NCBI GenBank assembly: GCA_030532785.1
Contig: JAUNKJ010000012.1
Span: 1-23,489 of the forward strand
DNA from: Cardiobacteriaceae bacterium
GTDB lineage: Bacteria; Pseudomonadota; Gammaproteobacteria; Cardiobacteriales; Cardiobacteriaceae
Direction: 5' to 3'
Length of the DNA stretch: 23,489 nucleotides
The translations under genes and the position numbers were made by a program. Below are positions 665 through 21,036 of this stretch, one piece after another. The notes under the pieces were generated by a model. That model was not told the DNA's origin and did not search any database. It saw nothing but the letters and a program-made list of their open reading frames with translations. Each line of letters starts with the position of its first letter. Positions within the stretch are counted from its first letter, which is position 1.

Positions 665-3634
665 ATGCCGCCTCTTTTCCCTCGTCATTGCGCCATGTCC
701 TCCCCGATCTCCCCCCTGATCACCAAATTTCTCGACGCGCTTGCCGCGCGCGGTTTTCGTGGCGATATTGCCGCCACCCCCGGCGAACGCGCGGTCTATG
801 CCACCGACAATTCGATTTATTTCCGCCTGCCGCAGGCCGCCGTTTTCCCGCGCGATCATGCGGATGTGGTGTTGCTGATGACCCTGCTCGGCGAAGACGA
901 TTTTCGCGGCGTGCATATCGCCGCGCGCGGCGGCGGTACGGGAACGAATGGCCAATCGCTCACCGACGGCATCGTCGTCGATCTGTCGCGTTACATGCAC
1001 CGCATTGTCGCCATCGACCCGGAAAAGCGCACCGCCACGGTAGAGGCGGGCGTGGTCAAGGATCAGCTGAACGCCGCACTCAAGGCGCACGGCCTCTTTT
1101 TCGCGCCCGAGCTGTCCACCTCGAACCGCGCCACCATCGGCGGCATGATCAACACCGACGCCAGCGGCCAGGGGAGCTGCACCTACGGCAAAACGCGGCA
1201 TCATGTCCTCGCCCTGCACACGGTGCTCGCAGGCGGCGAGACGCTGGTTTCCGAAGCGCTTGCCCGCCACGATTGGCAGGAAAAAATCCGCGACAAACCC
1301 CCGGCGCAACAAGCGTTCTATCACGCGCTTTATCGCCTCGCCGATGAGCATCGCGAAGTCATCGCCAACGCCTTCCCGCCGCTCAACCGCTCGCTCACCG
1401 GCTACGATCTGCCCCATTTGCTCGATGAGAATACCTTCAATATCAACAGTGTCCTTTGCGGCGCGGAAGGCTCGCTCGGCATCGTCACCCAGGCGACGCT
1501 CAATCTCCTGCCCATTCCCAAGCATCGCGCGCTGGTCAATATCGGCTACGCCGATTTCATGGCGGCGCTCTCTGACGCGCGCACCCTGATGGCGCGCAAG
1601 CCGCTCTCCATCGAAACCGTGGATGCCACGGTACTCGCGCTCGCGCAAAACGACATCGTCTGGCAAAGCGTCGCCGACTATTTCCCGGCGGAAGTCGCGG
1701 GCATCAACCTCGTTGAATTCAATGCCGAGAGCGAAGCCGCGCTGCAAGATATTCTCGCTGCTTTTCGCGAACATCTGAAAAATGATCAAAGTGTTGCCCG
1801 GCTGTCGATGACCGAAGCGCATGGCGCACAAGCCATCAACGCGGTGTACAACATGCGCAAGCGCGCCGTGGGGCTTTTGGGCAACGTGCAGGGCGAAGCG
1901 CGGCCGCAGCCCTTTGTGGAAGACACCGCCGTACCGCCGGAACATCTCCCGGAATTTATTGCGGAATTTCGCGCCATTCTCGACCGGCGCGGGCTTGCCT
2001 ACGGCATGTTCGGCCATGTCGACGCGGGCGTCTTGCATGTGCGCCCGACGCTGGACATGAAAGACCCGCAAAGCGCGGAAAAAGTCAAAGACATCAGCGA
2101 CGAAGTCGCGGCGCTGACGCGGCGCTACGGCGGCGTGCTTTGGGGCGAACACGGCAAGGGACTCAGATCCGCCTACGCCCCCGATTTTTTCGGCGACGCC
2201 TACCCGCTCGCGCAACAGGTCAAAGCGCTCTTCGACCCGCACAACCAGTTGAATCCGGGGAAAATTGCCACCCCCGACGCCAGCGCTTTGACCGGCCTCA
2301 CCGACGTCCATTTGCGCGGCAGCCGCGACCGCGCCATCGCCGCCCAAGACTGGCAAGCCTTCGGTGCCGCCATGCACTGCAACGGCAACGGTGCCTGTTT
2401 CAACTACGATTTTCTTGATCCCATGTGTCCCTCGTGGAAAGCCACCCGCGACCGCCGCCACTCGCCCAAAGGCCGCGCGACGCTGATCAAAGAATGGCTG
2501 ATGCAACCCCCGCCCGCGCCGCGACTCTGGAAAGGCAAGGCGCAAGGCCTTGATTTGGAAGTCTATGAGGCGCTGCACGGCTGCCTCTCCTGCAAATCAT
2601 GCAGCGGCCAATGCCCGGTGAAAGTCGACATCCCCGACAGCAAGGCGCGTTTCCTCGAACGCCACCACCACCGCTACCGCCGCCCCTTGCGCGACCATGT
2701 CATCGCCAACCTCGAACACCTCCTGCCGCGCCTCGCCTTCGCCGCGCCGCTCTACAACGCCATCCAGGGCAGCCGCCCCATGCGCGCCCTGCACCGCCGC
2801 CTCCTCGGACTCGTCGACGCCCCGCTCTTCGCCCGCAACGTCGAACTCCCCGCCGTCAACCTCCTGACAAGCCCGGCACAACTCGTTGACATCGAAAAGG
2901 AAAACAGCATCATCCTCGTGCAGGACGCCTTCACCCGCCACTTCGACACCGCCGTGTGGCGCGACTGGCTCCTCCTCCTGCAAGCGCTCGGCGTCAACGT
3001 CTGCGTCCTCCCCTACGTTCCCAGCGGCAAACCATTGCACGTCCACGGCTTCCTCAAACGCTTCGCCAAAACCGCCGAACGCAACCGCGCGCGCTTCGCC
3101 GAATACGCACAAAGCGGCATCGCGCTGGTCGGCCTCGACCCCGCCATCACATTGATATACCGCGACGAATACCGCAAAGACTACGGCCACGCGAAAAGCG
3201 ACCGCGACGACTGGCACATCCTCCTGCCCCAGGAATGGCTCGCGCAATGGCTGGCAAAACAACCGCCCCGCCCCACAAGCAACACCGCGCCGTACTACCT
3301 TGCCGCGCACTGCATGGAAAAAACGCAAATGAACGGCAGCGCGAAAGCCTGGCAACGCATCTTCGCCCACTTCGGGCTGGAACTGCATGAAATCGCCAGC
3401 GGCTGCTGCGGCATGTCCGGCACCTACGGCCACGAAGCCGAACACCTCGGCCTCTCGAAAACCCTCTACGCGCAATCGTGGCAAACGCCCGTCGGCGAAC
3501 ACGGCGAGCGCCTCCTCGCCACCGGCTACTCCTGCCGCAGCCAGGCAAAACGCGTGGACGGGCAAACCCTCGCCCATCCCCTGCAAGCGTTATTGCAGGA
3601 AATATACAAAAATAGTGATTTTTTACCATCATGA
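665..3634 (+). CDS. Fused FAD-linked oxidase / 4Fe-4S + CCG-domain oxidoreductase. A GlcD-like N-terminus is joined to a GlcF-like C-terminus, giving a YdiJ-like D-2-hydroxyacid dehydrogenase architecture
   Basis: 989-aa ORF. FAD_binding_4-type motif RGGGTGTNGQS...GIVVDL near the N-terminus. Ferredoxin-like CLSCKSCSGQCP (C-x2-C-x2-C-x3-CP) at about aa 640. CCG-type cysteine motif CCGMSGTYGHE near the C-terminus. The true start may be ATG 695 (MSSPISP...) rather than 665, since ATG 665 lies inside a TACAAT -10-like hexamer. The last 9 codons and the TGA stop (3632-3634) lie inside repeat copy B. Confidence 0.8.
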   Translation: MPPLFPRHCAMSSPISPLITKFLDALAARGFRGDIAATPGERAVYATDNSIYFRLPQAAVFPRDHADVVLLMTLLGEDDFRGVHIAARGGGTGTNGQSLTDGIVVDLSRYMHRIVAIDPEKRTATVEAGVVKDQLNAALKAHGLFFAPELSTSNRATIGGMINTDASGQGSCTYGKTRHHVLALHTVLAGGETLVSEALARHDWQEKIRDKPPAQQAFYHALYRLADEHREVIANAFPPLNRSLTGYDLPHLLDENTFNINSVLCGAEGSLGIVTQATLNLLPIPKHRALVNIGYADFMAALSDARTLMARKPLSIETVDATVLALAQNDIVWQSVADYFPAEVAGINLVEFNAESEAALQDILAAFREHLKNDQSVARLSMTEAHGAQAINAVYNMRKRAVGLLGNVQGEARPQPFVEDTAVPPEHLPEFIAEFRAILDRRGLAYGMFGHVDAGVLHVRPTLDMKDPQSAEKVKDISDEVAALTRRYGGVLWGEHGKGLRSAYAPDFFGDAYPLAQQVKALFDPHNQLNPGKIATPDASALTGLTDVHLRGSRDRAIAAQDWQAFGAAMHCNGNGACFNYDFLDPMCPSWKATRDRRHSPKGRATLIKEWLMQPPPAPRLWKGKAQGLDLEVYEALHGCLSCKSCSGQCPVKVDIPDSKARFLERHHHRYRRPLRDHVIANLEHLLPRLAFAAPLYNAIQGSRPMRALHRRLLGLVDAPLFARNVELPAVNLLTSPAQLVDIEKENSIILVQDAFTRHFDTAVWRDWLLLLQALGVNVCVLPYVPSGKPLHVHGFLKRFAKTAERNRARFAEYAQSGIALVGLDPAITLIYRDEYRKDYGHAKSDRDDWHILLPQEWLAQWLAKQPPRPTSNTAPYYLAAHCMEKTQMNGSAKAWQRIFAHFGLELHEIASGCCGMSGTYGHEAEHLGLSKTLYAQSWQTPVGEHGERLLATGYSCRSQAKRVDGQTLAHPLQALLQEIYKNSDFLPS

Positions 3635-3698
3635 AGCGCTTACCGTGAGAAATTTTCTCATTATAAGCGCTTAGTGATGAGAAAATTTCTCATCATGA
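3608..3698. repeat. Copy B (long form) of the modular palindromic element
   Basis: AAAAATAGTGATTTTTTACCATCATGAAGCGCTTACCGTGAGAAATTTTCTCATTATAAGCGCTTAGTGATGAGAAAATTTCTCATCATG. It contains two AAGCGCTT cores and two GAGAAA(A)TTTCTCA palindromes. It overlaps the stop codon of the upstream oxidoreductase. Confidence 0.7.
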
Positions 3699-3714
3699 CC
3701 GAAGGATGGGCGTC

Positions 3715-3998
3715 AACCCACCTTTCGTAGGTTGGTGGTGCATCTCGACAGGCTCGATAACCATTGCAAGGTCGCTGCATTTCGACAGGCTCAATAACCA
3801 CTTGTCGAAGCTCCTTGCAATGAACTCCAACATGTGACGGCAATAGAAGCCGTAGGCTGGGTTAGTTGCGCAGCAACGTAACCCAGCAGAAATGGTCAAA
3901 TCGCGCTGGGTTACGGCTGCGCCTAACCCAGCCTACGGAAAATGTGCCACGGAAAACGTGCGGTGCGAATTGTCATGGTGGGCTGAAGCCCACCCTAC
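3715..3998. repeat. Cluster of GTAG-headed REP-like palindromic units (BIME-like mosaic) plus a 26-nt direct repeat
   Basis: CGTAGGTTGGTGGTGC (3727) and CGTAGGCTGGGTTAG (3853) on the + strand. The reverse complement carries CCGTAGGCTGGGTTAG (3920-3935) and GGTAGGGTGGGCTTCAGCCCACC (3976-3998). A perfect 16-bp inverted repeat CCGTAGGCTGGGTTAG / CTAACCCAGCCTACGG flanks about 55 nt and contains the nested inverted repeat GTAACCCAGC / GCTGGGTTAC. The direct repeat TGCATYTCGACAGGCTCRATAACCA occurs twice (3740-3766 and 3778-3804). The ...CAGCCTAC ends recall the E. coli REP terminus GGCCTAC. Confidence 0.6.
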
Positions 3999-4056: not shown

Positions 4057-4098
4057 ACATGTAATGCTCTTGCATTTTACATGTAACAAATCTACAGT
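4057..4098 (+). promoter_or_regulatory. Sigma70-like promoter (TTGCAT-17-TACAGT) with an overlapping operator-like inverted repeat ACATGTAA-N12-TTACATGT; predicted leaderless or near-leaderless transcript
   Basis: -35 TTGCAT at 4070-4075, a 17-nt spacer, -10 TACAGT at 4093-4098. The predicted TSS is about 4104-4106, at or 1-2 nt before ATG 4106, and there is no SD. The perfect 8-bp inverted repeat at 4057-4064 / 4077-4084 straddles the -35. Confidence 0.4.
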
Positions 4099-4105
4099 AG
4101 CGCCC

Positions 4106-4765
4106 ATGAACAAAAAGACTTCTGGAAAAACCGCCGCCAAGGCATCTGCCGCTAAAACTTCCGCCGACTATCAGCGCGCCTTTCGCCAGCGTTTGCGCGA
4201 ACAGGGCTTGAAGAAGCGGGAGGTCTGGATTCGTCCCGAGCATGAAAAGCTTCTGGGCGAGATTGAAGAACGCCTGCGGCATCCCGCCGCAGGCACTACG
4301 GGAGCAACGCTGATGGATATCCGCAAAGACAGTTGGCATACTGAAGCGCTTTATCAGGCGCTGGCCGCCGAGCCTTTTTTCACTGACGGACGCGCGACGC
4401 TGGAGCTGATTGACGGCCTGCATCCTTCGTTGCTCGTAGTGCTGCATGATTACGGCGATTTGCCCGTGTATCTCGGGCTGTCCGGGGCGCAGATCGTGGT
4501 GGAAGCGGTGTTGTGGCAGGCGTCTTTGGTGCGCGACAGCGCCGCGTTTCACGAGGCGGTACTCGCCACGCACAAGTATTTTCCGCTGTCCACCATCAGT
4601 CTGGAGCAGACGGCGGACGGCGAGGCATATTACGGCATGTTCGGTGCGCTGTTGGCAGCGTCATCGCTTGCCGATATTCTGGTGGAGATTGAAACGCTGG
4701 CGGCAAACGTCATCGAGGCGGCGGCGGCGTACCGCGACTTTTTGCACACGGGAGAAGAGGCATGA
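4106..4765 (+). CDS. DUF2170(YjfI)-like protein with a roughly 85-aa Lys/Ala-rich basic N-terminal extension. Family assignment tentative; it rests on gene-order analogy with E. coli yjfI-yjfJ
   Basis: ORF in the track starts at 4064, but the promoter analysis favours ATG 4106 (MNKKTSGKTAAKASAAKTSADYQRAFRQRLREQGLKKREVWIRPEHEKLL...). The stop TGA at 4763-4765 overlaps the ATG of the downstream PspA-like gene (ATGA). The N-terminus resembles histone-H1/AlgP-like AKA/KTA low-complexity tails. Confidence 0.55.
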   Translation: MNKKTSGKTAAKASAAKTSADYQRAFRQRLREQGLKKREVWIRPEHEKLLGEIEERLRHPAAGTTGATLMDIRKDSWHTEALYQALAAEPFFTDGRATLELIDGLHPSLLVVLHDYGDLPVYLGLSGAQIVVEAVLWQASLVRDSAAFHEAVLATHKYFPLSTISLEQTADGEAYYGMFGALLAASSLADILVEIETLAANVIEAAAAYRDFLHTGEEA

Positions 4766-5451
4766 CCATGTGGGGAAAATTGATGACCGCGTTGCGCGGT
4801 GGGGTACACGAAACGGGCGAGGCGCTGATGGATAGCCAGGCGCTGCGCATTCTCGAGCAGGAAATCCGCGAGGCCACTGCGGAAGTGCAGCGTGCGAAGG
4901 ACAGCCTGGTGGAAGTGATGGCGCAGCAGAAGCTTGCCGAGGGGCGCGCAGGGCAGGTTGCGGAAAAAATCATGGAATATGAGGGCTATGCCTTGCAGGC
5001 GCTCGACAAGGACGAGGAAACGCTGGCGCACGAAGTGGCGGCACGCATTGCCGCGCTGGAGGCGGAAAAGGGCGAGCATGACGCGCTTGCTGGGCAATAC
5101 CGCCACGCCGTCCGTGCTTTGCAGGCCACGATTCAGGAGAGCGAGCAGCATTTGCGCCGCATCCGTCAACAGGCCGATACGGTGAAGGCCACGGCGCATG
5201 TGCAAAAGGCGCAGGCGGCGGTGGCGGAGCGCTTCGGTTCGTCGCAATCGAAGATGCACAATGCGATGGAATCGCTGGCGCGCATTAGGGAACGGCAGAT
5301 GGAAGACGCGATGCGTCTCGAGGTTTCGGGGGAATTGGCGCGCGCCGGCAGCGATGCGGCGCTGGAGGCAAAATTGCGCGATGCCGGGATTGGTGGCAAG
5401 GGCAATACCGATACGCAAGCGATATTGGAACGATTGAAGGCAAAAAAATGA
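4762..5451 (+). CDS. PspA/IM30 (phage-shock protein A / Vipp1, ESCRT-III-like) family protein, YjfJ-like
   Basis: 229-aa all-helical coiled-coil protein (MTMWGKLMTALRGGVHETGEALMDSQALRILEQEIREATAEVQRAKDSLVEVMAQQKLAEGRAGQVAEKIMEYEGYALQAL...) with the characteristic PspA N-terminal amphipathic region and heptad pattern. It is translationally coupled to the upstream gene. The TGA stop (5449-5451) lies inside repeat copy G. Confidence 0.75.
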   Translation: MTMWGKLMTALRGGVHETGEALMDSQALRILEQEIREATAEVQRAKDSLVEVMAQQKLAEGRAGQVAEKIMEYEGYALQALDKDEETLAHEVAARIAALEAEKGEHDALAGQYRHAVRALQATIQESEQHLRRIRQQADTVKATAHVQKAQAAVAERFGSSQSKMHNAMESLARIRERQMEDAMRLEVSGELARAGSDAALEAKLRDAGIGGKGNTDTQAILERLKAKK

Positions 5452-5512
5452 GAAATTTTTGCACACCAAGCGCTTTGTGAGGGTAAAAAATGATTATTTT
5501 GAGTGATAGTAT
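5447..5512. repeat. Copy G (partial, divergent) of the modular palindromic element
   Basis: AAAAAAATGAGAAATTTTTGCACACCAAGCGCTTTGTGAGGGTAAAAAATGATTATTTTGAGTGATAGTAT. It carries the AAGCGCTT core, a GGTAAAAAA flank and a terminal GATAGTAT (ATAGTG head inverted). Confidence 0.5.
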
Positions 5513-5561
5513 GACTTCGTCGGTGTTGTCGTGATAACCCTATAAGATGAAAGGCTATTAT

Positions 5562-5683
5562 CCTCCCCTGCTTGCGGGGGAGGGACAGGGTAGGGGGAAA
5601 CGAGGTTTTCCACTTTATTGCCTCAAAAGAATGCTATGCGTTTGACACCCCCATCCCAACCTTTCCCCGTAAGCAGGGGAAGG
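5562..5683 (+). promoter_or_regulatory. Structured intergenic leader upstream of the yqiJ-like gene: two C-rich/G-rich hairpins, a G-quadruplex-capable G-run motif and a long-range 9-nt inverted repeat
   Basis: Hairpin 1 CCTCCCCTGCTTGCGGGGGAGG (5562-5584). G-run motif GGGGGAGGGACAGGGTAGGGGG (5576-5597). Hairpin 2 CTTTCCCCGTAAGCAGGGGAAGG (5661-5683). TTGCCTCAA (5618-5626) pairs with TTGAGGCAA (5690-5698). The function (terminator, attenuator or sRNA) is unknown. Confidence 0.35.
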
Positions 5684-5760
5684 AGTGGATTGAGGCAAAA
5701 CGAAACATCAATGCCAATAGCTGTACTTCTCCTTCAATTGAGACTGGCAAAGGAACAACC

Positions 5761-6399
5761 ATGGAAACCTTTTTCTACACGGCGTTTACCTTCCCCACGG
5801 CGGTGCCGACATTTTTGCTGATGCTCGCCGTACTCTTCTGGCTGGTGTCGCTTTTGGGTCTCATCGATGCCGACAGTCTGCTCGATGGCCTTGACGGCGG
5901 CGACGGCAACTTTGCCGAAAGCGGCGGGCTGCCCGCAGCACTCCTCTGGCGCTTCCGCCTGATCGGCTATCCGATCACGCTGACCCTGACCGTGGTGGCG
6001 CTCTTTGCCTGGTGGCTGTGCTATTACGCGATGTTTTTCCTCACGCCGCTGTTGCCGTGGCCATGGCTGCGTTATCCCGTGGGCATCGCCCTGTTGCCGC
6101 TCGCGTTTTACGCCGCCGCGTGGCTCGCGGGCAAGGCGCTGCTGCCGCTGCGGCCGCTCTTTGTGCAAAAGGAAACGCGGGCGCAGGGTTTTGTCGGGAA
6201 AACGGCAGTGGTGCGCACCTCTGCCGTCGACGAGCATTTCGGCGAGGCGACGCTTGACGACGGCGGCGCGGGGCTGATTGTCCAGGTGCGCAGCCGCACG
6301 CCGCTCGATGCCGGGACGCGTGTGGTGCTGCTCGAATTCGATGCCCAGGATCATGTGTATTATGTGATGGCAGAACAGGAATTTTTTGCAAAGGAGTAA
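5761..6399 (+). CDS. YqiJ-like (DUF1449 / NfeD-type) inner-membrane protein; predicted partner of the downstream flotillin
   Basis: Start at ATG 5761 (METFFYTAFTFPTAVPTFLLMLAVLFWLVSLLGL...), preceded by AAAGGAACAACC. The ORF in the track, starting at 5572, runs through the structured leader and is rejected. The protein has several N-terminal TM helices and a C-terminal soluble OB-fold-like segment (GFVGKTAVVRTSAVDEHFGEATLDDGGAGLIVQVRS...VVLLEFDAQDHVYYV), as in NfeD/YqiJ proteins. The TAA stop (6397-6399) sits inside the SD of the next gene. Confidence 0.65.
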   Translation: METFFYTAFTFPTAVPTFLLMLAVLFWLVSLLGLIDADSLLDGLDGGDGNFAESGGLPAALLWRFRLIGYPITLTLTVVALFAWWLCYYAMFFLTPLLPWPWLRYPVGIALLPLAFYAAAWLAGKALLPLRPLFVQKETRAQGFVGKTAVVRTSAVDEHFGEATLDDGGAGLIVQVRSRTPLDAGTRVVLLEFDAQDHVYYVMAEQEFFAKE

Positions 6400-6403
6400 C
6401 ACG

Positions 6404-8287
6404 ATGATGGAAATGATATTACCGGTCGCGACCGGCGCGGCGATTGTGCTGGCAGTGCTGATTTGCGTGGCGCTGCTGTTCAAGGCCTTCTATTACAAAG
6501 TCAATCAGGGCACCGCCCTGATCGTCAATGATCTCAGCCGCACGCCCAAGGTGCATTTCACCGGCGCATTTGTCTACCCGGTGATCTACCGCAAGGAATT
6601 GATGAATATCTCATTGATTACCATGGAAATCGACCGGCGCGGCAAGGACGGCCTCATCTGCGCCGACAATATGCGCGCCGATATTACCGTCGCCTTCTAT
6701 CTGCGCGTCAACGAAACCGCCGAAGATGTGCTGAAAGTCGCCAAATCCGTGGGCGCGGGGCGCGCCTCCGACAAAGACGCCGTCAACGACCTCTTCAACG
6801 CCAAATTCTCCGAAGCGCTGAAAACCGTGGGCAAACAGATTGAATTCGTCAAACTCTTTGAAAACCGGCAGGATTTCCGCGACAAAATCATCCGCGTCAT
6901 CGGCAATGATCTGAACGGCTACATCTTGGAAGACGTCGCCATCGACTACCTCGAACAAACGCCGAAAAGCTCGCTCGACCCCAACAACATCCTCGACGCC
7001 GAAGGCATCCGCAAAATCACCGAACTCACCGCGCAGCAAAACATCCGCACCAATATGCTCGCCCGCGATGAAGAACTCGCCATCACCAAGAAAAACGTGG
7101 AAACGCGCGAAGCCATGCTCGAACTCGAACGCCAGCAAGCCGACGCCGAAGCCAAACAGCAGCGCGAAATCGCGAGCATCCGCGCCCGCGAAGAAGCCGA
7201 AGCACGCAAAGTGCAGGAAGAAGAACGCAAAAAAGGGGAAATGGCGCACATCCTCGCCGAGCAGGAACTCGCCGTCATGCGCGAAAACCAGCAGCGCGAA
7301 GTAGACGTCGCCGCGCAAAACCGCGAACGCGCCGTCGCCGTGGAAATCGAAAAAGTCAACCGCGCAAGGGCGCTGGAAATCGTCTCGCGCGAACGCGAAG
7401 TGGAACTGCACCGCATCGAAGCGGAAAAAGCCGTGGAAGTGCAGAAACAGGAAATCGCCAACGTCATCCGCGAGCGCATCAGCGTCGACAAAACCGTCGC
7501 CATCGAAGAAGAACGCATCAAGGAAGTGCGCGAAGTGGCGGAAGCCGACCGCGCCAAACAAGTGCGCATCCTCGAAGCCGAAGCGCGCGCCGAAGAAGAA
7601 AAAGTCCGCGCCATCAAAGCCGCCGAAGCCGAAGAACAAAGCGCCAAACACCGCGCGGTGGAAATCACCACCATCGCCCAGGCGCGCCTCGACGCCGCCG
7701 CCAAAGACGCCGACGCCAAGAAAAAACTCGCCGAAGGCACCCAGGCCGAACAGGCCGCCTTTGGCCTCGCCGCCGCCCGCGTCCAGGAAGCGCAAGCCAT
7801 TGCCAGCGAAAAACAGGGCATGGCGGAAGCGAACATCATCCGCGCCAAAGGCGAAGCACAGGCGCAGGCCGAGCGCGACATCGGCATGGCACAAGCCGAG
7901 ATCACCCGTGAACAATTCCGCGCCGAAGCCGATGGTTTGACAGAAAAATTCGGCGCGATGGACACCATGAGCGCGGAATCCCGCGCGCACGAGGAATACC
8001 GCATGCGCCTCGACAACGCGCTGAAAGAAAGCCTCGCCGCCATCGCCGCCGGACAGGAAATCGCCCAGGAAAACGCGCGCATCCTCGCGATAGCACTCGA
8101 AAAAGCGAAAATCGACATCGTCGGCGGCGAACAGCACTTCTTCGACACCTTCGCCAAATCACTCTCGCTCGGCAAATCCATCGACGGCCTCATCGGCAAA
8201 AGCGACATCGCCAGCAGCGTCATCCAGCAATTGCTGGGCAGGGACGCGCTGCCGGAGCGGCATGACGAACAAAACAGTGGGGGATAA
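6404..8287 (+). CDS. Flotillin / band-7 (SPFH) family protein, YqiK-like, with a long Glu/Ala/Arg/Lys-rich coiled coil
   Basis: AAGGAG at 6391-6396 lies 7 nt upstream of ATG 6404 (MMEMILPVATGAAIVLAVLICVALLFKAFYYKVNQGTALIVND...). It has an N-terminal TM anchor, then an SPFH core (ADITVAFYLRVNETAEDVLKVAKSVG...), then an EA-repeat coiled coil of about 300 aa (7050-7950), as in bacterial flotillins. Gene order with the upstream NfeD-type gene matches E. coli yqiJ-yqiK. Confidence 0.8.
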   Translation: MMEMILPVATGAAIVLAVLICVALLFKAFYYKVNQGTALIVNDLSRTPKVHFTGAFVYPVIYRKELMNISLITMEIDRRGKDGLICADNMRADITVAFYLRVNETAEDVLKVAKSVGAGRASDKDAVNDLFNAKFSEALKTVGKQIEFVKLFENRQDFRDKIIRVIGNDLNGYILEDVAIDYLEQTPKSSLDPNNILDAEGIRKITELTAQQNIRTNMLARDEELAITKKNVETREAMLELERQQADAEAKQQREIASIRAREEAEARKVQEEERKKGEMAHILAEQELAVMRENQQREVDVAAQNRERAVAVEIEKVNRARALEIVSREREVELHRIEAEKAVEVQKQEIANVIRERISVDKTVAIEEERIKEVREVAEADRAKQVRILEAEARAEEEKVRAIKAAEAEEQSAKHRAVEITTIAQARLDAAAKDADAKKKLAEGTQAEQAAFGLAAARVQEAQAIASEKQGMAEANIIRAKGEAQAQAERDIGMAQAEITREQFRAEADGLTEKFGAMDTMSAESRAHEEYRMRLDNALKESLAAIAAGQEIAQENARILAIALEKAKIDIVGGEQHFFDTFAKSLSLGKSIDGLIGKSDIASSVIQQLLGRDALPERHDEQNSGG

Positions 8288-8290: not shown

Positions 8291-8554
8291 ATGGATATCA
8301 CGACCATTGATTTGCACGATGCAGAAAAACAGCTCGTGCAATTGGTGCAGAAAGTCAGCCGTTCGGGCAAACCAATCGTGATTGCCGAAGATGGCAAATC
8401 TTTGGTGCAGATCGCGCCGCTTGCGGAAAAAAACCGCAAACCGATTTGGGGCTTTATGCAAGGGCAAATCACCGTGCCGGATGATTTTGATGACATGGAA
8501 GCGGAGACGATCGCGGCCATGTTTGCCGGAGAGGATGATGAAGATTCTCTTTGA
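8291..8554 (+). CDS. Type II antitoxin, Phd/YefM (VapB-like) family
   Basis: 87 aa. MDITTIDLHDAEKQLVQLVQKVSRSGKPIVIAEDGKSLVQIAPL...KPIWGFMQGQITVPDDFDDMEAETIAAMFAGE. The C-terminal G.M.G.I.IPDDFD...F segment is typical of antitoxins paired with PIN toxins. Its 3' end overlaps the toxin start. Confidence 0.75.
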   Translation: MDITTIDLHDAEKQLVQLVQKVSRSGKPIVIAEDGKSLVQIAPLAEKNRKPIWGFMQGQITVPDDFDDMEAETIAAMFAGEDDEDSL

Positions 8555-8933
8555 TACCCATGTCCTTTTATGGATTGCGCTGGATCAGAAAGAAAAATTT
8601 TCCCGGAAAAGCCTGGCCTTGCTTGAAAACGCAGATCAGGATTTTTATGTGAGCGTGGCGAGTATTTGGGAAATTGCGATCAAGGCATCGTTGCAGAAAA
8701 CGGATTTCCAGATTGACCCTCGGCAGATGGTATTCCAGATGCAGGAGGCGGGAATCCATTTGCTGCCCATTGCATGCGAGCATATTTTTCATCTTGCGCA
8801 ATTGCCATCCATTCATCGCGATCCTTTTGACCGCCTGCTGCTGGCGCAAGCGGAAACGGAAAAGATGTATTTGATGACCGCCGACAGTAAATTGTTGCAG
8901 TACGCAAGCGCTTGGGTCATCGCGGCGGGATAG
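8535..8933 (+). CDS. vapC: VapC-type PIN-domain ribonuclease toxin
   Basis: Start at ATG 8535/8538 (MMKILFDTHVLLWIALDQ...), overlapping the antitoxin stop (8552-8554) by about 20 nt. The track ORF 8382-8933 begins inside the antitoxin and is not used. PIN acidic residues appear in the expected context (FDTHVLLW; SVASIWEIAIK; DPFDRLLLAQAE; LMTAD). Confidence 0.8.
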   Translation: MMKILFDTHVLLWIALDQKEKFSRKSLALLENADQDFYVSVASIWEIAIKASLQKTDFQIDPRQMVFQMQEAGIHLLPIACEHIFHLAQLPSIHRDPFDRLLLAQAETEKMYLMTADSKLLQYASAWVIAAG

Positions 8934-8965: not shown

Positions 8966-9051
8966 GGTGAGAAAATTTCTCATGTATAAGCGCTTTGCGC
9001 GAGAAAATTTCTCACCATAAGCGCTTAATGATGGTAAAAAAACCACTATTT
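8966..9051. repeat. Copy C (long form, inverted orientation) of the modular palindromic element
   Basis: TGGTGAGAAAATTTCTCATGTATAAGCGCTTTGCGCGAGAAAATTTCTCACCATAAGCGCTTAATGATGGTAAAAAAACCACTATTT, the reverse complement of the ATAGTGGTTTTTTTACC...AAGCGCTT...GAGAAAATTTCTC arrangement. It is followed directly by the SD and ATG of the ankyrin gene. Confidence 0.7.
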
Positions 9052-9062: not shown

Positions 9063-9800
9063 ATGAAAAAATATACAAAAACCGGCAAAGCCCTGTGGTT
9101 ATCCCTGCTCTGCGCGCTGAACCTCGCCCACGCCACGGACGATGCGCAGGCGGAAAAACTGCACGAGATGTCGCGTGCGGCGAAGGCGGGCGATGTGGCA
9201 GCGTTGCAGACGCTCGCGGGCACGCCGCCGGATCAGGCACTTTATGCGCGTCTCTTGTGCCGCAGCATCGCCGCGGACAATTTCCGCGCGTTTGTCGCCC
9301 TGCTCGATGCCGGTGCCGATGCCGGCTATGGCGAGCGCGGCGTGCGTGATCCCGGGATACACTGCGCCGTGTTGCCGCCCGCGCTTCGAGCGCGCTATCT
9401 CGAAGAACTGTTGCGGCGTGGCGTGGACGTGAACACGCGCAATACCCTGGGGGAAACCCCGCTGCACAGCGCGCTGGGGCTGACGAAAAAGCCGTTCGTC
9501 CAGATCGAGATGGTCGACATGCTGCTCGCGGCAGGCGCGGACATCCACGCCCGCGACAAATACGGCAAGACCGTGCTGTTCAAGGCCATCGTCGGCGGCA
9601 ATCCGCACCGCGACTGGGTGATGTATTTTCTCGAAAAAGGCGTGGACCCGCAGGCGAGAAGCGATATGGGTTACACCTTCCAGTTCAACTATCTCTACAG
9701 CACCCGCGAAATGAAAGGCGAGGGGAAACGCCGCCGCGACAAAGTCAGACAATGGCTTAGCGAACGCGGCATACCGCTGGAAAGTGATGCAAAAAAATAA
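9063..9800 (+). CDS. Secreted (Sec signal peptide) ankyrin-repeat protein
   Basis: MKKYTKTGKALWLSLLCALNLAHA|TDD... signal peptide with an AxA site. There are at least three ANK repeats (e.g. GETPLHSALGLTKKPFVQIEMVDMLLAAGADIHARDKYGKTVLFKAIVGG). RBS AAGGA sits 7-10 nt upstream. The stop TAA 9798-9800 immediately precedes repeat copy D. Confidence 0.75.
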   Translation: MKKYTKTGKALWLSLLCALNLAHATDDAQAEKLHEMSRAAKAGDVAALQTLAGTPPDQALYARLLCRSIAADNFRAFVALLDAGADAGYGERGVRDPGIHCAVLPPALRARYLEELLRRGVDVNTRNTLGETPLHSALGLTKKPFVQIEMVDMLLAAGADIHARDKYGKTVLFKAIVGGNPHRDWVMYFLEKGVDPQARSDMGYTFQFNYLYSTREMKGEGKRRRDKVRQWLSERGIPLESDAKK

Positions 9801-9804: not shown

Positions 9805-9860
9805 TTATAGTGATTTTTTACCACCACAAGCGCTTCACGATGGTAAAAACATACTATATT
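9805..9860. repeat. Copy D (short form) of the modular palindromic element
   Basis: TTATAGTGATTTTTTACCACCACAAGCGCTTCACGATGGTAAAAACATACTATAT, a roughly 50-bp palindrome ATAGT...TTTTTTACCA...AAGCGCTT...TGGTAAAAA...ACTAT. Confidence 0.65.
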
Positions 9861-9878: not shown

Positions 9879-12800
9879 ATGACCGATCTGCACAGCGAAA
9901 CCCTGGTCAATCAGGCGGTGGCCGAAGGCAGCGCCTACGCCATCATCCGCAAGCGTCTGGAGGAACAGGGCGCGCGCTTGCAGACCCTGACCCGTGCCTT
10001 GAACGAGGCGCGTACCGCGCATTTCGGCAGCACCGAGATGCGCGTCGTCGCCCGCATCCGCGTGCGCACCGAACACAATTGCATCGCCCGCGACATGGTG
10101 CAGCTCGGCGACACACTCCTCTTCGGCTACAACGTTTTCATGGGACTCAAGCCGGAAACGCATGTGGCAGACGTCTTCGCCCTGTTTGCGCTGGAGGTGG
10201 CGGACGGGCAAACCACCATCCGCGAAGTGCCGCTCGCGGGCAGCTTCCTGCAAGACAGCCGCTTCACCAGCGATTTCGACGAACTCTACCGCTATTACAA
10301 GCACACCCGGCTCACCGAACTCACCGTGCGCGACGGCAAACTTCTGGCCGCCTTCCAGATCGGCGAACGCGCCGAAGACCGCCGCGTCTTCCGCTGGCAA
10401 TTGCGCCCCGACGGCACGCCGGATTACATCGACAACCGTGGCGAACGCGACATCGCGCTCCCCGAACCCTATGATTTCCTGTGGCATAGCGCCGGGCGCG
10501 AGCGCCTGAGCGAAGACGGCAGCCACCTCAACATCGCCGACACCCTGTTTGTCGCCACACGCGACGGCACCCTCACCCTGCGCATGGAAGACAACACCCA
10601 AGGCGGGCAAACCCTGCTTGCGGAAACGCTTGCCGACCGCACCCAATCGCTCGCCGATCTCGACGCCGCATGGGCGGATGTCGACGGCCTGCTGCTCCTG
10701 CGCCTCACCCCCTACCGCGAAGCGCCGCGCCACTACATTTTCAACCGCCTCACCCAAGCGCTCACGCGCGAAGACAGCCTCGGCGACTCCTGCGTGCAGC
10801 TCCCGGAAGGCCACGGCATCCTCTACCCCGGCGGTTATGCCCTTGCAAGTGGCGAGATCAAAAACTACGACGAACCGCAGGGCATGACCTTCAAGCGCAA
10901 AATCCGCGCCCCCAACGGCGAAGACATGCTCTTCGTCTTCTACGCCCCGGCGCGCGGCGAATTTGCCCTCTACTCCTACAACCTCATCAGCAAAAGCCTG
11001 CAAAATCCGGTGTATGGCCACGGCTATGCGCTCTCGCCTTCCGGCGCGCTCACCATCTTCAGCGCCGAAGGCGAGCCGACGCGGGTGCATCCCATGCAAA
11101 TCTGGCAAACGCCCTATTGCAGCGACGAACACGCCGCCAACCAGCCGCAGGACGACGCCCCCTTCTCGCGCATCGGCAACCCCGATCTGGTGCGCGGCAT
11201 CTCCGACCTCTACAGCGTCGCCCGCCTCATCGGCGAACAGCAGGCCAGCCAGGCCGTCTACGAACGCCTGCAAAAACAGATACAAAAACTCTTTGACGAC
11301 TACTACTGGCTTGATGACGCCAGCCTCGCCGCCGAAGCAACGCTTGCGCCCTTTGCCGCCCTGCTGCGCGACATGGACGCCACCGCCGACAACGTCATCG
11401 ACGAATTTGAAAAAGCCGAAGCCATCCGCCGCGACGCCGCCCACGCGCTCGAACAGGCGCGCGAGGCGCAGCGCCAGTTGCAGCGCGACCTGCAACACGG
11501 GCAATGGGCAACCGTGGGCGAACACGCCCAGGCGCTCGCCCGCATCGGTGAAGCGCGCGGGCAGCTCGTCATGCTCGGCGAACGGCGCGGCATGGATACG
11601 GCAGCGCTTGGCGAACTGCAACAGGCGCTCGACGCCCTGCAGGCGCAGACCGGCGAGCGCACCGTCGCCTTCTTGCGCGACGCCAACGCCTTTGCCGCCT
11701 ACCACGACGCGCTGGCGCAACTGGCGGCGCAAATCGATGCCGCCGCCAAACGCAGCGATCTCGACGCCATCCTCGCCGACATCCAGCACAGCGCCGCCGG
11801 GCTGGATGAACTCTCGGCGCTGATGAACACGCTGGAGATTGAAGACGCCACCCTGCGCACCCGCATCATTGACGACATCTCCGCCGTCTACGCCCGCCTC
11901 AACCAGGAGCGCGCCCGCGCGCGCCACAAGGGGCAAGGCCTCGGCAGCGAAGAAGCCGCCGCGCAATTCGCCGCGCAAATGAAGCTGCTCACGCAAAGCC
12001 TCGGCAATGCGCTCGCCGACGTGCAAACCCCGGAGGACTGCGACGATGCGCTCGCGCGTCTCCTCGTGCAACTGGAAAATCTGGAAAGCCGCTTTGCTGA
12101 CGACGAACGCTTCCTTGCCGACCTCGCCGACAAGCGCGACGACCTGCACAGCGCGCTCACCGAACGCAAGCAGCAACTGCTCGAAGCGCGCGAACGCAAG
12201 GGGCAGCAACTCGCCGACGCCGGCTCGCGCATCCTCGACAACCTCGCGCGCCGCGCCCAGACCTTCAGCGACGTCGCCGCCTTCAACACCTGGCTTGCCA
12301 GCGATGCACTGGTGCAGAAAATCGCCCAACTCGGCAAAACCCTGCGCGAACAGGGCGACACCGTGCGCGCCGACGACCTCGACGCCCGCTTCAAGGCCAT
12401 CCGCGACCAGGCTATCCGCACCTTGCGCGACAAAAGCGAACTCTTTGACGGCGAACATCTCATCCGCTTCGGCCAATACCGCTTTTCCGTCAACAGCACA
12501 GCGCTCGACCTCGTCCTCCTGCCGCGCGAGGGCAAACTCTGCGCCCACCTCGCCGGTACCCAATATTTCCAGCCCATCGAACACCCCGAACTCGACGCCC
12601 TGCGCGACTACTGGGACATCAGCGTCCTCTCCGAAAGCGCCGCGCTCTACCGCAGCGAATATCTCGCGGCCGAAATGCTGCGCGCCGCCGTGCGCCGCGA
12701 ACAGGGCCTGACCCTCGAAGCGCTGGGGCAGGCGGTGCAAAGCCTGCCCGACTTGCAGGCGCTGGCAGCCGCCTTTGCCGCGCCGCGCTATCAGGAAGGC

Positions 12801-15164: not shown

Positions 15165-15240
15165 TGATTTTTTACCACCATGAAGCGCTTATCGCGAGAA
15201 AATTTTGCACGATAAGCGCTTCATGGTGAGAGAATTTACC
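15157..15240. repeat. Copy E (long form) of the modular palindromic element
   Basis: AAAAAATAGTGATTTTTTACCACCATGAAGCGCTTATCGCGAGAAAATTTTGCACGATAAGCGCTTCATGGTGAGAGAATTTACC. It contains a perfect 19-bp stem CACCATGAAGCGCTTATCG / CGATAAGCGCTTCATGGTG around a 13-nt loop. Confidence 0.7.
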
Positions 15241-15264: not shown

Positions 15265-15328
15265 GGTGGGCTGAAGCCCAGCCTACAAATCGCTGCGCGA
15301 TTCCCCCACCCCCGCAAGTGGGGGAGGG
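15265..15328. repeat. REP-like GTAG-headed unit plus a C-rich/G-rich hairpin, in the convergent gap between the giant ATPase gene and polA
   Basis: The reverse complement of 15271-15296 reads TGTAGGCTGGGCTTCAGCCCACC, the same family as 3976-3998. CCCCCACCCCCGCAAGTGGGGGAGGG (15300-15328) has the same stem type as hairpins 5562-5584 and 5661-5683. The hairpin lies just 3' of the polA stop on the minus strand, but no U-tract follows it. Confidence 0.55.
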
Positions 15329-18039: not shown

Positions 18040-18167
18040 GGGGCTGCTCCCGGCCGGGGTAAAAGGTTTGCGAAGGTGTCGGGAAATGCGGCAGAATGGC
18101 GCGTTTTCCCCGAACGGCGGGCATTTTTAAGAATGCCCTTCCGCTTGTCAAATGCAGGACACCGCCC

Positions 18168-18914
18168 ATGAACGACAACGACCAGAGCCAGTGCTACAAA
18201 CGCAATCCGCCAAAGCTGATCCGCCTGAAAGATACCGATACCTTGCAGAAGGAATCGTGGAAAGTCTTTCAAATCATGAGCGAATTTGTGGAAGGCTTTG
18301 AGCGGCTGGCGGTGATCGAGCCGTCGGTGAGCATTTTCGGCTCCGCCCGCATCAAGGAAGATCATCCCTATTACCAGCTCACCATGCAGGTGGCGAAGCG
18401 CTTGTCGGACGAGGGGTTTTCCGTGGTCTCCGGCGGCGGCCCCGGTTTGATGGAGGCGGCCAATCGCGGCGCATACGCGGGCGAGAAGGGGCTTTCCATC
18501 GGCCTCAACATTCAGTTGCCGCACGAGCAGAGCGGCAATCCCTATCAGGATATTTCCATTGATTTCCGCCACTTTTTCTCGCGCAAGGTGATGTTTGTCA
18601 AATACGCGAATGCCTATGTGGTGATGCCCGGCGGCTTCGGTACGCTGGATGAACTGGCGGAGATTCTGACACTCATCCAGACCGGCAAGAGCCGCCGCTT
18701 CCCGGTGGTGCTGGTTGGCAGCGAGTTCTGGGCAGGGCTGATTGCCTGGTGCAAGAACACCCTCGTCACCGAGGGCATGATTGCCGCCGAAGACCTGGAT
18801 TTGGTGACGATGGTGGACGATGTCGACAGCGTGCTCGAGGTGATTCATGCCTTCTATGAAGACCGCCCCTACGCCCCCGTCGGCGATGAAGTGAAACGGC
18901 AAAGGGAGTTGTGA
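18168..18914 (+). CDS. LOG / TIGR00730-family Rossmann-fold protein (cytokinin riboside 5'-monophosphate phosphoribohydrolase-like nucleotide N-glycosidase), long type-II form
   Basis: SGGGPGLMEAANRGA and PGGFGTLDELAEILTL motifs. Start assigned to ATG 18168 (MNDNDQ...). The in-frame ATG 18096 is also possible. The stop TGA 18912-18914 overlaps the dctQ start (GTGATGG). Confidence 0.75.
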   Translation: MNDNDQSQCYKRNPPKLIRLKDTDTLQKESWKVFQIMSEFVEGFERLAVIEPSVSIFGSARIKEDHPYYQLTMQVAKRLSDEGFSVVSGGGPGLMEAANRGAYAGEKGLSIGLNIQLPHEQSGNPYQDISIDFRHFFSRKVMFVKYANAYVVMPGGFGTLDELAEILTLIQTGKSRRFPVVLVGSEFWAGLIAWCKNTLVTEGMIAAEDLDLVTMVDDVDSVLEVIHAFYEDRPYAPVGDEVKRQREL

Positions 18915-19432: not shown

Positions 19433-19433
19433 C

Positions 19434-20838: not shown

Positions 20839-20925
20839 TAAAAATAGTCGATTTTTACCACCATGAAGCGCTTATTGTGAGAAATTTTTGCACAGTAAGC
20901 GCTTTGCGGTGGGAAAATTTCCCAT
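20839..20925. repeat. Copy F (long form) of the modular palindromic element
   Basis: AAAAATAGTCGATTTTTACCACCATGAAGCGCTTATTGTGAGAAATTTTTGCACAGTAAGCGCTTTGCGGTGGGAAAATTTCCCA. Confidence 0.65.
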
Positions 20926-20949
20926 TGCAACAAAAAATCCACCGCGCGC

Positions 20950-20978: not shown

Positions 20979-21036
20979 CGCGCGCTTTCGCCTTGAGCCA
21001 CAGCCATCGGTCCATGCGCAAAAACCGGAGTTAAAA

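Follow-up and report, generated by a model that had tools for sequence, protein, structure and literature searches.

An abundant family of intergenic palindromic repeats in uncultured Cardiobacteriaceae

Seven elements between the genes of one contig

The window analysed here is the entire contig of a Cardiobacteriaceae MAG, 23,489 nucleotides in length. Among its genes are an FAD-oxidase gene, pspA, a DUF3686 ATPase gene, polA, dctM and rpsO, and the genes bracketed by the repeated elements described below are ordinary housekeeping genes. The original prediction, made from the letters of this DNA, placed seven copies of a palindromic repeat in the window; exactly seven are present, at the same coordinates and all between genes. 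An HMM profile (nhmmer) derived from 16 long forms matched the window at those seven places only, and a gene map with Pfam support confirmed that every copy is intergenic. The elements have no protein-coding content and are as AT-rich as had been claimed (36% GC, against 60.5% GC for the window). They are listed here together with the parts of the focal copy, B; a core is the 8-bp palindrome AAGCGCTT, and elements without polarity are given as unstranded.

551-600, unstranded: copy A, a short form whose single core (577-584) is flanked by two inverted TTTTTTACC/GGTAAAAAA arms, with the head AAAAATAGTGG at the left only; nhmmer match 550-611; weak hairpin (-16.9 kcal/mol, z -2.9); the FAD-oxidase gene starts 65 nt downstream (665)
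3608-3698, forward strand: copy B (focal), a long polar form in the order head, core 1, Y1, core 2, Y2 tail; nhmmer 84.2 bits on the forward strand vs 52.2 on the reverse; fold -32.6 kcal/mol, z -7.2
3608-3627, forward strand: head of copy B, AAAAATAGTGATTTTTTACC, the family's conserved terminal block
3634-3641, unstranded: core 1 of copy B, the invariant 8-bp palindrome
3647-3659, unstranded: Y1 palindrome of copy B, GAGAAATTTTCTC, centre of the long hairpin
3665-3672, unstranded: core 2 of copy B, spaced 31 bp from core 1 and paired with it in the long hairpin
3676-3695, forward strand: tail of copy B, consisting of the Y2 palindrome GATGAGAAAATTTCTCATCA and folding into a second small hairpin
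5447-5512, reverse strand: copy C, a one-core polar form, inverted, with its tail by the pspA stop and its head toward the next gene; nhmmer match 5501-5448 on the reverse strand; fold no better than shuffles (z -0.7)
8966-9051, reverse strand: copy D, a long form, inverted, with 12 nt between the end of its head and the ATG at 9063; 77.5 bits on the reverse strand; fold -29.1 kcal/mol, z -4.9
9805-9860, unstranded: copy E, a short symmetric form with a head at each end (TATAGTGATTTTTTACC ... GGTAAAAACATACTATA) and one core (9828-9835)
15157-15240, forward strand: copy F, a long form between the convergent DUF3686 ATPase gene and polA; 82.0 bits; strongest hairpin by z-score (-40.0 kcal/mol, z -10.1)
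20839-20925, forward strand: copy G, a long form that follows the dctM stop and precedes the promoter and leader of rpsO; 81.1 bits; fold -40.2 kcal/mol, z -7.0

In three cases the upstream gene ends inside the element. The 989-aa FAD-oxidase ORF upstream of copy B extends 27 nt into the element (TGA, 3632-3634), the pspA stop (TGA, 5449-5451) lies in the tail of copy C, and that of a 1761-aa gene (TAG, 15162-15164) in the head of copy F. The component motifs were strongly over-represented in the window: AAGCGCTT was found 16 times vs 0.91 expected, with 11 of the 16 inside elements, and GAGAAAWTTTCTC, allowing up to two mismatches, nine times vs 0.37 expected. For the combination TTTTACC-N5/6-AAGCGCTT, nine occurrences were observed vs 0.00 expected from shuffles.

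These results bear out the earlier claim that the small, non-coding palindromic elements form a real, dispersed family. The claim that it belongs to no named family also held: Rfam did not match it, the sole match at E <= 1 in the window being a truncated tRNA at the 3' end, and a literature search using the core, the extended core, and REP or uptake-sequence reports for Cardiobacteriaceae found no description of the family. The repeat is an abundant, intergenic, palindromic and hitherto undescribed family of some uncultured Cardiobacteriaceae.

Architecture and folding

The long form is one polar 86-nt unit whose order is fixed: a 20-nt head, a core, a GAGAAAWTTTCTC palindrome, a second core 31 bp from the first, and a second palindrome as tail. 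The elements had been described as modules in variable number and orientation. Singlets, doublets and one triplet were indeed seen and arm orientation alternates, but this description understates the order, since the long forms of five genomes align without internal gaps in a single polar architecture. Mean column identity across 16 long forms from these five genomes was 81%, with AAGCGCTT invariant in 16 of 16 and the head (alignment columns 1-21) at least 90% conserved. The conserved blocks of the 89-column alignment are AAAAATAGTGA, T6ACCA, AAGCGCTT and GAGAAAWTTTCTC, and A/T tracts stand at a fixed distance from the core; a conserved GTAG tetranucleotide is absent from this alignment. The long-form profile scores about 30 bits higher in the forward direction than in reverse.

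The elements are built on a repeat period of ~31 bp, or three helical turns, composed of one AAGCGCTT and one A-tract/T-tract palindrome GAGAAAWTTTCTC. Each contains one to three periods capped by the conserved 20-nt head, and the core-to-core distance was 30-32 bp in all 25 of the doublets examined. Short forms carry a single core with a head on either side, their inverted heads measuring 17-21 nt.

The predicted folding energies of long forms range from -29 to -40 kcal/mol (z -5 to -10), and these forms can make a hairpin of roughly 25 bp in which the two cores pair, whereas the folds of short forms are weak (z -0.7 to -3.1). Copy E had been credited with a perfect 19-bp stem; it actually forms 7 + 9 pairs with an internal loop between them and a 17-nt loop, at -12 kcal/mol. 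Over 16 copies, the 25-pair helix centred on Y1 was 81.8% paired, against 36-50% for slid controls. Double changes in this helix numbered 28 vs 17.9 +/- 3.1 in shuffles, a value reached by 0 of 500 shuffles. The pairing exceeded that of column-shuffled controls by a small margin only (81.8% vs 79.1%), and a spacer test gave 3.5/6 vs 3.0/6.

Placement, conservation and the core in sister lineages

Intergenic gaps of 40 bp or longer were surveyed in four loci, namely the window and three loci of relatives (L114, L115 and L117) picked independently of the repeat. Elements occupied 15 of 19 tandem and 7 of 9 convergent gaps vs 1 of 9 divergent gaps (Fisher p = 0.0006). Placement at gene 3' ends, which the original prediction gave as invariable, is therefore a strong bias (22 of 28 3'-end gaps vs 1/9 divergent) rather than a strict rule. 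All seven window copies and the 18 copies of the other three loci are intergenic, and the next start codon lies 12-20 nt downstream of several copies. Separate canonical GC-rich terminators with T-runs adjoin elements in L115 and L117. One of these stands after the tRNA downstream of pnp.

The three loci of relatives carry six, seven and five elements, respectively (51.3 kb), and the window seven (23.5 kb), which corresponds to a density of about one copy per 2.6-3.4 kb over the four loci. Extrapolation from these sequences (about 75 kb) suggests several hundred copies per genome. The family is far from limited to the few copies first noticed: four other genomes, sampled over about 107 kb, yielded at least 35 more, and it is present in at least five related genomes. 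Across 125 loci (1.06 Mb), the long-form profile matched only the window clade and the MAG S15M_Sa_46; the family was found neither in 105 unrelated loci nor in seven other Cardiobacteriaceae loci.

Identity between copies was 86% in the conserved blocks vs 44% in the spacers. No two copies were more than 88% identical, and an orthologous pair was no more similar than non-orthologous pairs. The constancy of the blocks together with the lack of near-identical copies indicates constraint and not recent spread. Orthologous sites hold an element while the number of periods changes, and this retention spans 72-93% protein identity. In L114, the site orthologous to copy E carries a two-core form with the right head and the Shine-Dalgarno region unchanged, and the site orthologous to copy F has three cores. 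The L115 ortholog of copy G matches it in position and orientation; its blocks are preserved and its spacers differ. L113, the sole contig from the same strain, showed 100% identity.

Two sister lineages carry the core in other forms, again in massive excess. The first, L121, contains CAAAGCGCTTTG 61 times in 22 kb (2.8/kb), with 45 of the 61 inside genes, in all three frames, and ten in polA. The second, comprising L124 and 47 metagenome contigs, contains CGAAGCGCTTCG in dense arrays with a 30-bp period (1069 cores in 318 kb), and its intergenic arrays reach about 50 sites. Core flanks in the window clade are (A)TAAGCGCTTA(T). There, the density of AAGCGCTT (0.68/kb in the window) is raised solely through the intergenic elements; the five occurrences outside them are within the 0-5 per 22 kb of motif-free relatives, and comparison of the 23-kb window with these relatives gave no core enrichment in coding DNA. 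Five other lineages of Cardiobacteriaceae, one of them Cardiobacterium-like, lack the motif, and motif-free lineages separate the two motif-bearing groups in a PNPase tree. The presence of a common core in the window elements and in the arrangements of the sister lineages suggests that these lineages share a recognition protein or are subject to a drive of the DUS/HIP kind.

Candidate explanations for the repeat

The original prediction compared the elements to MITE and Correia-type repeats. The closest kind appears instead to be REP/BIME, a mosaic of alternately oriented palindromic units; we prefer it to a MITE with terminal inverted repeats (TIRs) and target-site duplications because the long forms are polar, the flanks show no target duplication and a parent IS was not found. 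Our leading explanation, to which we give somewhat less than an even chance, is a clade-specific extragenic palindromic repeat of this kind. Like the REP/BIME sequences of Enterobacteriaceae and the REPINs of Pseudomonas, the elements are non-coding, extragenic, dense and clade-specific in sequence. They share with REP/BIME the bias to operon 3' ends and convergent gaps, the imperfect palindromic units of alternating orientation with conserved linkers, and the occurrence of singlets, hairpin-forming doublets (like REPINs) and longer arrays whose unit number varies at orthologous loci. In contrast, REPs are normally GC-rich whereas the elements have 36% GC in a 60% GC genome, and the GTAG typical of many REPs is absent. 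Further differences are the invariant 8-bp perfect palindrome in each unit, the strict 31-bp period, the 20-nt head cap and the recurrence of the core motif in a non-REP-like form inside genes of a sister lineage. No RAYT or other transposase was found, a weak negative: E. coli RayT, run by tblastn against 0.96 Mb of loci from related genomes and thus against only part of each, gave no match below E = 0.7. The REP model leaves the scatter of the 8-mer in essential genes of the sister lineage unexplained.

Under the REP/BIME explanation, the conserved blocks, and above all the core, would be recognised by at least one trans-acting protein, probably a dimer, of host or selfish origin, and this recognition, rather than recent copying, would hold the blocks constant. 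Arrays may grow and shrink through slippage or unequal exchange between periods. New sites would be rare, arising by copy-paste or conversion and surviving only outside genes and promoters. Long forms transcribed at the end of an operon would act like REPs, forming a stable 3' hairpin that may protect the upstream mRNA or insulate neighbouring units, and the phased A-tracts might be bound by DNA-bending or topology proteins.

The sister lineages also call to mind the uptake signals DUS (Neisseriaceae) and USS (Pasteurellaceae). The competence machinery of these Cardiobacteriaceae would then prefer AAGCGCTT, the phased A/T tracts would assist bending or melting as in Haemophilus USS, and elements would build up between genes through uptake bias and recombination. 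One Cardiobacteriaceae species is reportedly naturally transformable, going by a study title in the references of PMC3630211. As in DUS/USS, a short, GC-rich and here invariant core with lineage-specific flanks ('dialects') is hyper-iterated in the sister lineages at very high density, coding DNA included; A/T tracts stand beside it at a fixed distance, as in the extended USS; and inverted repeats lie between genes at their ends, resembling the inverted DUS/USS pairs at terminators. A dyad-symmetric DUS arrangement has been reported in Simonsiella (PMC3630211). Unlike DUS/USS, however, the core is a perfect palindrome, its distribution is patchy within the family (missing from five lineages, with the bearers separated in the PNPase tree), and enrichment in the window clade is confined to the 86-nt structured element and does not extend to genes; over-representation in coding DNA, a DUS/USS feature, was seen only in L121 with its 45/61 copies in genes. 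An uptake signal also needs far less than a fixed polar 86-nt architecture with conserved head and tail, and we regard such a role as rather unlikely. HIP1 of cyanobacteria is a highly iterated palindrome, GCGATCGC, linked to a methyltransferase. HIP1 resembles the present motif as an 8-bp perfect palindrome with lineage-specific extensions and, in L121, in a density of at least 1/kb across coding and non-coding DNA. Its sequence and phylum differ, and the palindrome of the window clade keeps to modular elements between genes and does not reach such a density irrespective of coding status. More broadly, AAGCGCTT could be the recognition sequence of one conserved sequence-specific system in part of the Cardiobacteriaceae, either an uptake receptor or a HIP1-like drive, with three genomic outcomes: a bare 12-mer in genes (L121), arrays with a 30-bp period (L124 type) and capped AT-flanked elements (window). 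We consider this possible although doubtful; the uptake-receptor version, if true, would make a third, palindromic family of uptake sequences.

The constant 30-32 bp core spacing with AnTn tracts in phase would also suit structural arrays of phased sites for a nucleoid-associated or topology protein (gyrase, IHF or Lrp), selected in situ and non-mobile, which at operon ends would handle supercoiling or mark domain boundaries. E. coli BIMEs bind gyrase and IHF. The contrast between block and spacer conservation is typical of binding sites, and the occupancy of tandem and convergent gaps is consistent with this role. Yet a purely in-situ origin leaves the fixed 86-nt polar architecture at many loci of five genomes unexplained, and we find it improbable as an account of its own; it largely overlaps with the REP/BIME explanation and does not exclude it. 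We likewise see little chance of a classical MITE, that is, of Correia/ERIC-like deletion derivatives of an IS moved via TIRs in their heads by a transposase encoded elsewhere. The inverted heads of short forms, the defined ends and the dispersal would agree with it, and the elements resemble Correia/ERIC/RPE-type MITEs in being small, non-coding and hairpin-capable, with some copies overlapping gene ends. But the long forms are polar, with a head that differs from the tail and no long TIR; no duplication of TA or another target is visible in the flanks; near-identical copies, a sign of recent transposition, were not found; and the interior is periodic and modular, not a single inverted-repeat body. 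About 130 kb of family-positive DNA contains no transposase, with housekeeping genes between the elements, and elements are kept at orthologous sites across the range of protein identity given above. The 3'-end bias and strong hairpins of long forms could be those of intrinsic (Rho-independent) terminators, which we judge very unlikely. The T-tract lies 5' of the hairpin and the A-tract 3' of it, so that the stem lacks a following U-run on either strand; a terminator scan was not enriched, giving one weak site only, in copy A, and the canonical terminators adjoining elements in L115 and L117 are separate from them. A reading of module Y or the core as a regulon box, the operator of one particular dimeric regulator, is hardly credible. 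The half-sites are palindromic, and AAGCGCTT fits the AANCGNTT centre of LacI-family operators, with literature matches to cre boxes, but the flanking TG/CA of LacI-type boxes are out of register. The earlier suggestion that module Y is an operator seems unlikely because the elements fill most non-promoter gaps, avoid divergent gaps (1/9), precisely where promoters lie, and occur about once per 3 kb beside unrelated housekeeping genes.

The family fills most non-promoter intergenic gaps of a clade known solely from MAGs, and annotators of 3' UTRs, terminators, small RNAs and gene ends in these genomes will therefore meet it. Across the Cardiobacteriaceae, one palindrome takes three forms, occurring in a structured element between genes, in periodic arrays and as a 12-mer that invades genes. 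The lineages concerned constitute a natural comparison for the forces behind hyper-iterated short sequences, REP, DUS/USS and HIP1 among them, and phylogenetic profiling of motif-bearing versus motif-free Cardiobacteriaceae could point to the responsible protein.

Architecture and folding of the element

The seven AT-rich palindromic elements of the window (copies A, 551-600; B, 3608-3698; C, 5447-5512; D, 8966-9051; E, 9805-9860; F, 15157-15240; G, 20839-20925) share an invariant 8-bp palindromic core, AAGCGCTT. We aligned 16 long copies from five genomes without internal gaps. The resulting consensus is polar and about 86 nt long: aAAAATAgTga-TTTTTTAcCA-N5-AAGCGCTT-At.gtGAGAAAwTTTctCAc.a.-AAGCGCTT-..tgATGAGAAAaTTTatCA. 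A conserved 20-nt terminal head is followed by core 1, an A-tract/T-tract palindrome (Y1), core 2, which lies 31 bp past core 1, and a second palindrome of this kind (Y2) as tail. The core-to-core distance was 30-32 bp in all 25 doublets examined. Other copies are built from the same parts: a single core between two inverted heads forms the short elements (copies A and E and all five in L117, a related locus), copy C is polar with one core, and one element of the related locus L114 has three. The original prediction of two modules in variable number and orientation was thus a fair first description, but the true order is stricter: one to three repeats of a 31-bp period, with a head as cap.

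A profile built from the 16 long copies matched exactly the seven predicted places and no others in the window. The combination TTTTACC-N5/6-AAGCGCTT occurs nine times in the window against 0.00 expected from shuffles, AAGCGCTT 16 times against 0.91 expected, and GAGAAAWTTTCTC, allowing up to two mismatches, nine times against 0.37 expected. The predicted AT-richness also held, with 35.8% GC over the 520 bp of elements relative to 60.5% for the window.

Folding energies of the long forms range from -29 to -40 kcal/mol (z -4.9 to -10.1); the short forms give weak folds, with -11 to -17 kcal/mol and z values of -0.7 to -3.1. In copy E, which had been credited with a perfect 19-bp stem, the pairing is interrupted (7 + 9 pairs). 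Over the 16 long copies, pairing reached 81.8% in a helix of 25 pairs that is centred on Y1 and joins core 1 to core 2, relative to 36-50% for slid partners. Within this helix 28 cells changed on both sides, compared with 17.9 +/- 3.1 in column shuffles, and none of 500 shuffles reached 28; the excess in pairing itself is small (81.8 vs 79.1% in column shuffles). A separate test of spacer complementarity gave a modest difference, with 3.5/6 within copies and 3.0/6 between copies. Strong covariation of the spacers within copies, which had seemed likely at first, was dropped, as these formal tests give only a modest excess. A palindrome centred on a single core was not supported either (41.9% paired, lower than shuffles).

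Placement relative to genes

All seven elements of the window are intergenic. Stop codons of three genes lie inside them (TGA at 3632-3634 for the FAD-linked oxidase, TGA at 5449-5451 for pspA and TAG at 15162-15164 for the DUF3686 ATPase), so that the final codons and the stop codon of those reading frames come from the elements.

Genes of the window
665-3634, + strand, FAD-linked oxidase
4064-4765, + strand, DUF2170
4762-5451, + strand, PspA
about 5761-8287, + strand, two genes of unknown function
8382-8933, + strand, PIN domain protein
9063-9800, + strand, ankyrin-repeat protein
9879-15164, + strand, DUF3686/AAA ATPase
15337-18039, - strand, polA
18096-18914, + strand, LOG-family gene (in a block, 18096-20822, with dctQ and dctM)
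18911-19432, + strand, dctQ
19413-20822, + strand, dctM
about 21037-21303, + strand, rpsO
21324-23396, + strand, pnp

We tabulated all gaps of 40 bp or more in the window and in the related loci L114, L115, and L117. Elements occupied 15 of 19 tandem and 7 of 9 convergent gaps, but of nine divergent gaps just one was occupied (Fisher p = 0.0006). The claim that the repeat always lies at gene 3' ends therefore stands as a strong bias, "always" being too strict. Polar copies face either way with respect to the upstream gene (in tandem gaps about seven head-first and three tail-first, by our reading). Within the elements a T-run lies 5' of the hairpin and an A-run 3' of it, so they are not ordinary intrinsic terminators. 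Canonical terminators, with a GC-rich stem followed by a T-run, are found separately beside elements in L115 and L117, for example after the tRNA downstream of pnp. Consensus scans for promoters and terminators revealed neither enrichment nor overlap with the elements, the one exception being a weak site in copy A. Outside copy G, the promoter and leader of rpsO are conserved.

Several other repeats were observed in these gaps. A GC-rich palindromic repeat, GGTGGGCTGAAGCCCA(CC/GC)CTAC, occurs at 3977-3992 and 15265-15280, 281 and 25 bp from an AT-rich element; near 3705-3735 there is a related half-copy. A third small family (5565-5580, 15309-15324, and also about 5640-5680) consists of GC-rich hairpins with the pattern CCCC-N-GCWWG-N-GGGG (CCCCTGCTTGCGGGGG, CCCCCGCAAGTGGGGG) and shares intergenic gaps with elements C and F. 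The 429-bp gap past copy B, in which no gene was called, contains a direct repeat TCGACAGGCTCRATAACCA at 3745 and 3782 and an 85-bp inverted repeat GTAGGCTGGGTTA...TAACCCAGCCTAC at 3852-3936. At its end the window contains a truncated tRNA (23439-23489; Rfam 24.4 bits, 3' end cut); in L115 and L117, where the tRNA is complete, a canonical intrinsic terminator comes after it, and L117 has a repeat element there too.

Relatives, conservation, and the core in sister lineages

Among the matches listed in a genome scan, only the MAG "Cardiobacteriaceae bacterium S15M_Sa_46" had many, and its seven 8-kb blocks contain at least 17 further copies and nothing else common to the window. We also fetched loci through orthologous proteins (DUF3686 and PNPase), which chooses them independently of the repeat.

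Elements in loci fetched by orthologous proteins (identity to the window protein)
L114, DUF3686 protein, 72%: 6 elements in 15.4 kb
L115, PNPase, 93%: 7 elements in 19.8 kb
L117, PNPase, 88%: 5 elements in 16.1 kb
L118 (strain TAE3-ERU3), PNPase, 83%: no elements
L119 (Suttonella sp. R2A3), PNPase, 82%: no elements
L122, PNPase, 80%: no elements
L120 (clusters with a PNPase labelled Cardiobacterium sp. by NCBI), PNPase, 78%: no elements
L123, PNPase, 75%: no elements

The long-form profile found nothing credible in 105 unrelated loci, with a lone exception at E = 5e-4. A strict long-form pattern had no matches in a metagenome collection, indicating that the window clade is absent from that collection, and a viral scan for two cores returned single-match loci only, with one core pair each. 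The repeat had not been recognised as a named family, and this agrees with our searches: Rfam gave nothing relevant to the elements over the whole window at E <= 1, no description turned up in the papers searched on REP or uptake sequences in Cardiobacterium and Cardiobacteriaceae and on HIP in Gammaproteobacteria, and literature matches to AAGCGCTT and AAAGCGCTTT were primers or cre boxes.

Identity between copies is 86% in block columns and 44% in the 20 spacer columns. The highest pairwise identity is at most 88%, the best pair comes from two different genomes, and copy G is no more similar to its orthologue in L115 than non-orthologous pairs are to each other. Elements are nevertheless kept at orthologous sites despite considerable divergence. 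In L115 the counterpart of copy G likewise follows dctM, in the same orientation. At the site of one-core copy E, upstream of the DUF3686 gene, L114 carries a two-core element whose head and Shine-Dalgarno region match those of copy E; downstream of the gene, two-core copy F has a three-core counterpart. Such a combination of conserved blocks, site retention, and no near-identical copies is the signature of constraint on the blocks (recognition, selection, or drive), with whole periods gained or lost in place; a recent burst of transposition would look different. We saw no transposase, and in the ORFs bracketed by elements Pfam identified housekeeping enzymes only (amidohydrolase, epimerase, ABC-F proteins, acetolactate synthase, and similar). 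A tblastn search of 0.96 Mb of related loci with E. coli RayT gave no match, a negative of little weight, as sampling of this kind can easily miss a single-copy gene.

The 1761-aa DUF3686/DUF7902/AAA protein (9879-15164), named "DNA repair ATPase" by NCBI, has one close relative only (72% identity, L114), with remaining homologues at 52% or less; its named distant homologues come from other marine Gammaproteobacteria, e.g., Bacterioplanes, Reinekea, and Teredinibacter. The window and L114 have different genes upstream of it, suggesting that it was acquired horizontally or relocated along with its flanking elements. In L115, the closest relative (PNPase 93% identical), an extra Na+/sulfate-symporter-family gene is inserted in the interval between the copy G orthologue and rpsO (5844-7268); the corresponding interval of the window (20926-21036) lacks it.

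The core itself is not private to this element family. L121, a Cardiobacteriaceae MAG (GCA_030525785.1, JAUNEA010000005.1; PNPase 76% identical, GC 45%), contains 61 AAGCGCTT in 22 kb (2.8/kb), nearly all as cAAAGCGCTTTg. There the 12-bp palindrome CAAAGCGCTTTG is hyper-iterated and conservation ends at 12 bp; 45 of the 61 cores are within genes (10 in polA), in all three frames, read as QSAL, KAL, or KRF. Such iteration of a 12-bp palindrome through genes resembles HIP1 and DUS. L124 (PNPase 76% by BLASTP, GC 62%) has 57 cores, as cGAAGCGCTTCg, with dense non-coding arrays of (C)GAAGCGCTTC(G) at 15654-17540 and 5535-6113. About 50 sites, degenerate ones included, fall in one 1.9-kb non-coding stretch, with 28-35 bp as the modal spacing. 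When a metagenome collection was scanned for three cores so spaced, it yielded 47 contigs of L124 type (e.g., L133, L140, L153, and L203) from three ENA assemblies (ERZ773090, ERZ1033833, and ERZ773099). Together these contigs carry 1069 cores in 318 kb, and 84% of the cores lie in arrays. The spacers are mostly dissimilar, and the arrays are neither plain tandem repeats nor CRISPR. Readings as integron attC sites or CRISPR were set aside on the housekeeping neighbours, the 8-12-bp repeat, the lack of R'/R'' boxes, and the duplication of some spacers.

In a single-protein NJ tree, the motif bearers form two groups, {window, L115, L117} and {L121, L124}, with motif-free lineages between them. 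The base flanking the 8-mer defines three "dialects": T/A in the window clade, A/T in L121, and G/C in L124. As there are 256 possible 8-bp palindromes, the recurrence of this one in sister lineages is unlikely to be due to chance.

Low-GC (0.39-0.46) metagenome contigs contain three to four copies of CCACAAAGCGCTTTGTGG plus an AT linker at an exact 31-bp period (L125:1974-2205, L127:2752-2921, L185:8476-8680; also L147, L179, L182, and L199), capped by about 50 nt ending ATTTTTTACACCAYR and then AAGCGCTT, which is nearly the head of the window elements. They at first resembled wider relatives of the family, but because they lack prokaryotic ORFs and all represent a single orthologous locus, their source is probably eukaryotic host DNA, and they were set aside. 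Their likeness to it may reflect chance, convergence, or shared origin.

Nature of the family

Anatomy, placement, and evolutionary behaviour lead us to favour, tentatively and at somewhat less than even probability, a REP/BIME-like extragenic repeat whose core would be read by a putative trans-acting dimeric protein. As in REP/BIME, the units are extragenic, biased to 3' ends, palindromic, alternately oriented, and hairpin-capable, and they vary in number through singlets, doublets, and arrays. Unlike REPs, the family is AT-rich, with a strict 31-bp period, an invariant perfect palindrome, and a capping head. We keep it apart from the REP family proper: of the defining REP features, the GTAG motif is absent, no cognate RAYT was found in the related loci sampled, and copy number is given by the density in sampled loci. 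The REP-like reading leaves L121 unexplained; there the motif must spread within genes in the manner of uptake sequences and cyanobacterial HIP1, through base substitution or short conversion.

That the core or the elements serve as a DNA uptake signal is the leading alternative, but we consider it doubtful. In its favour are the dialects of the core flanks, the A/T tracts adjoining the core, the dyad-symmetric DUS reported for Simonsiella (PMC3630211), and a title cited in that paper on genetic transformation of Cardiobacterium hominis. However, the core shows no coding enrichment in the window clade, the fixed 86-nt architecture exceeds what such a signal needs, and the phylogenetic distribution is patchy. 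A structural binding array is improbable, and a classical MITE slightly more so. An intrinsic terminator is very improbable given the order of the T- and A-runs around the hairpin and the separate canonical terminators beside the elements, and a regulon operator is the most improbable of all. These readings overlap, and it is possible that the family is a REP-like element whose core doubles as an uptake or binding site.
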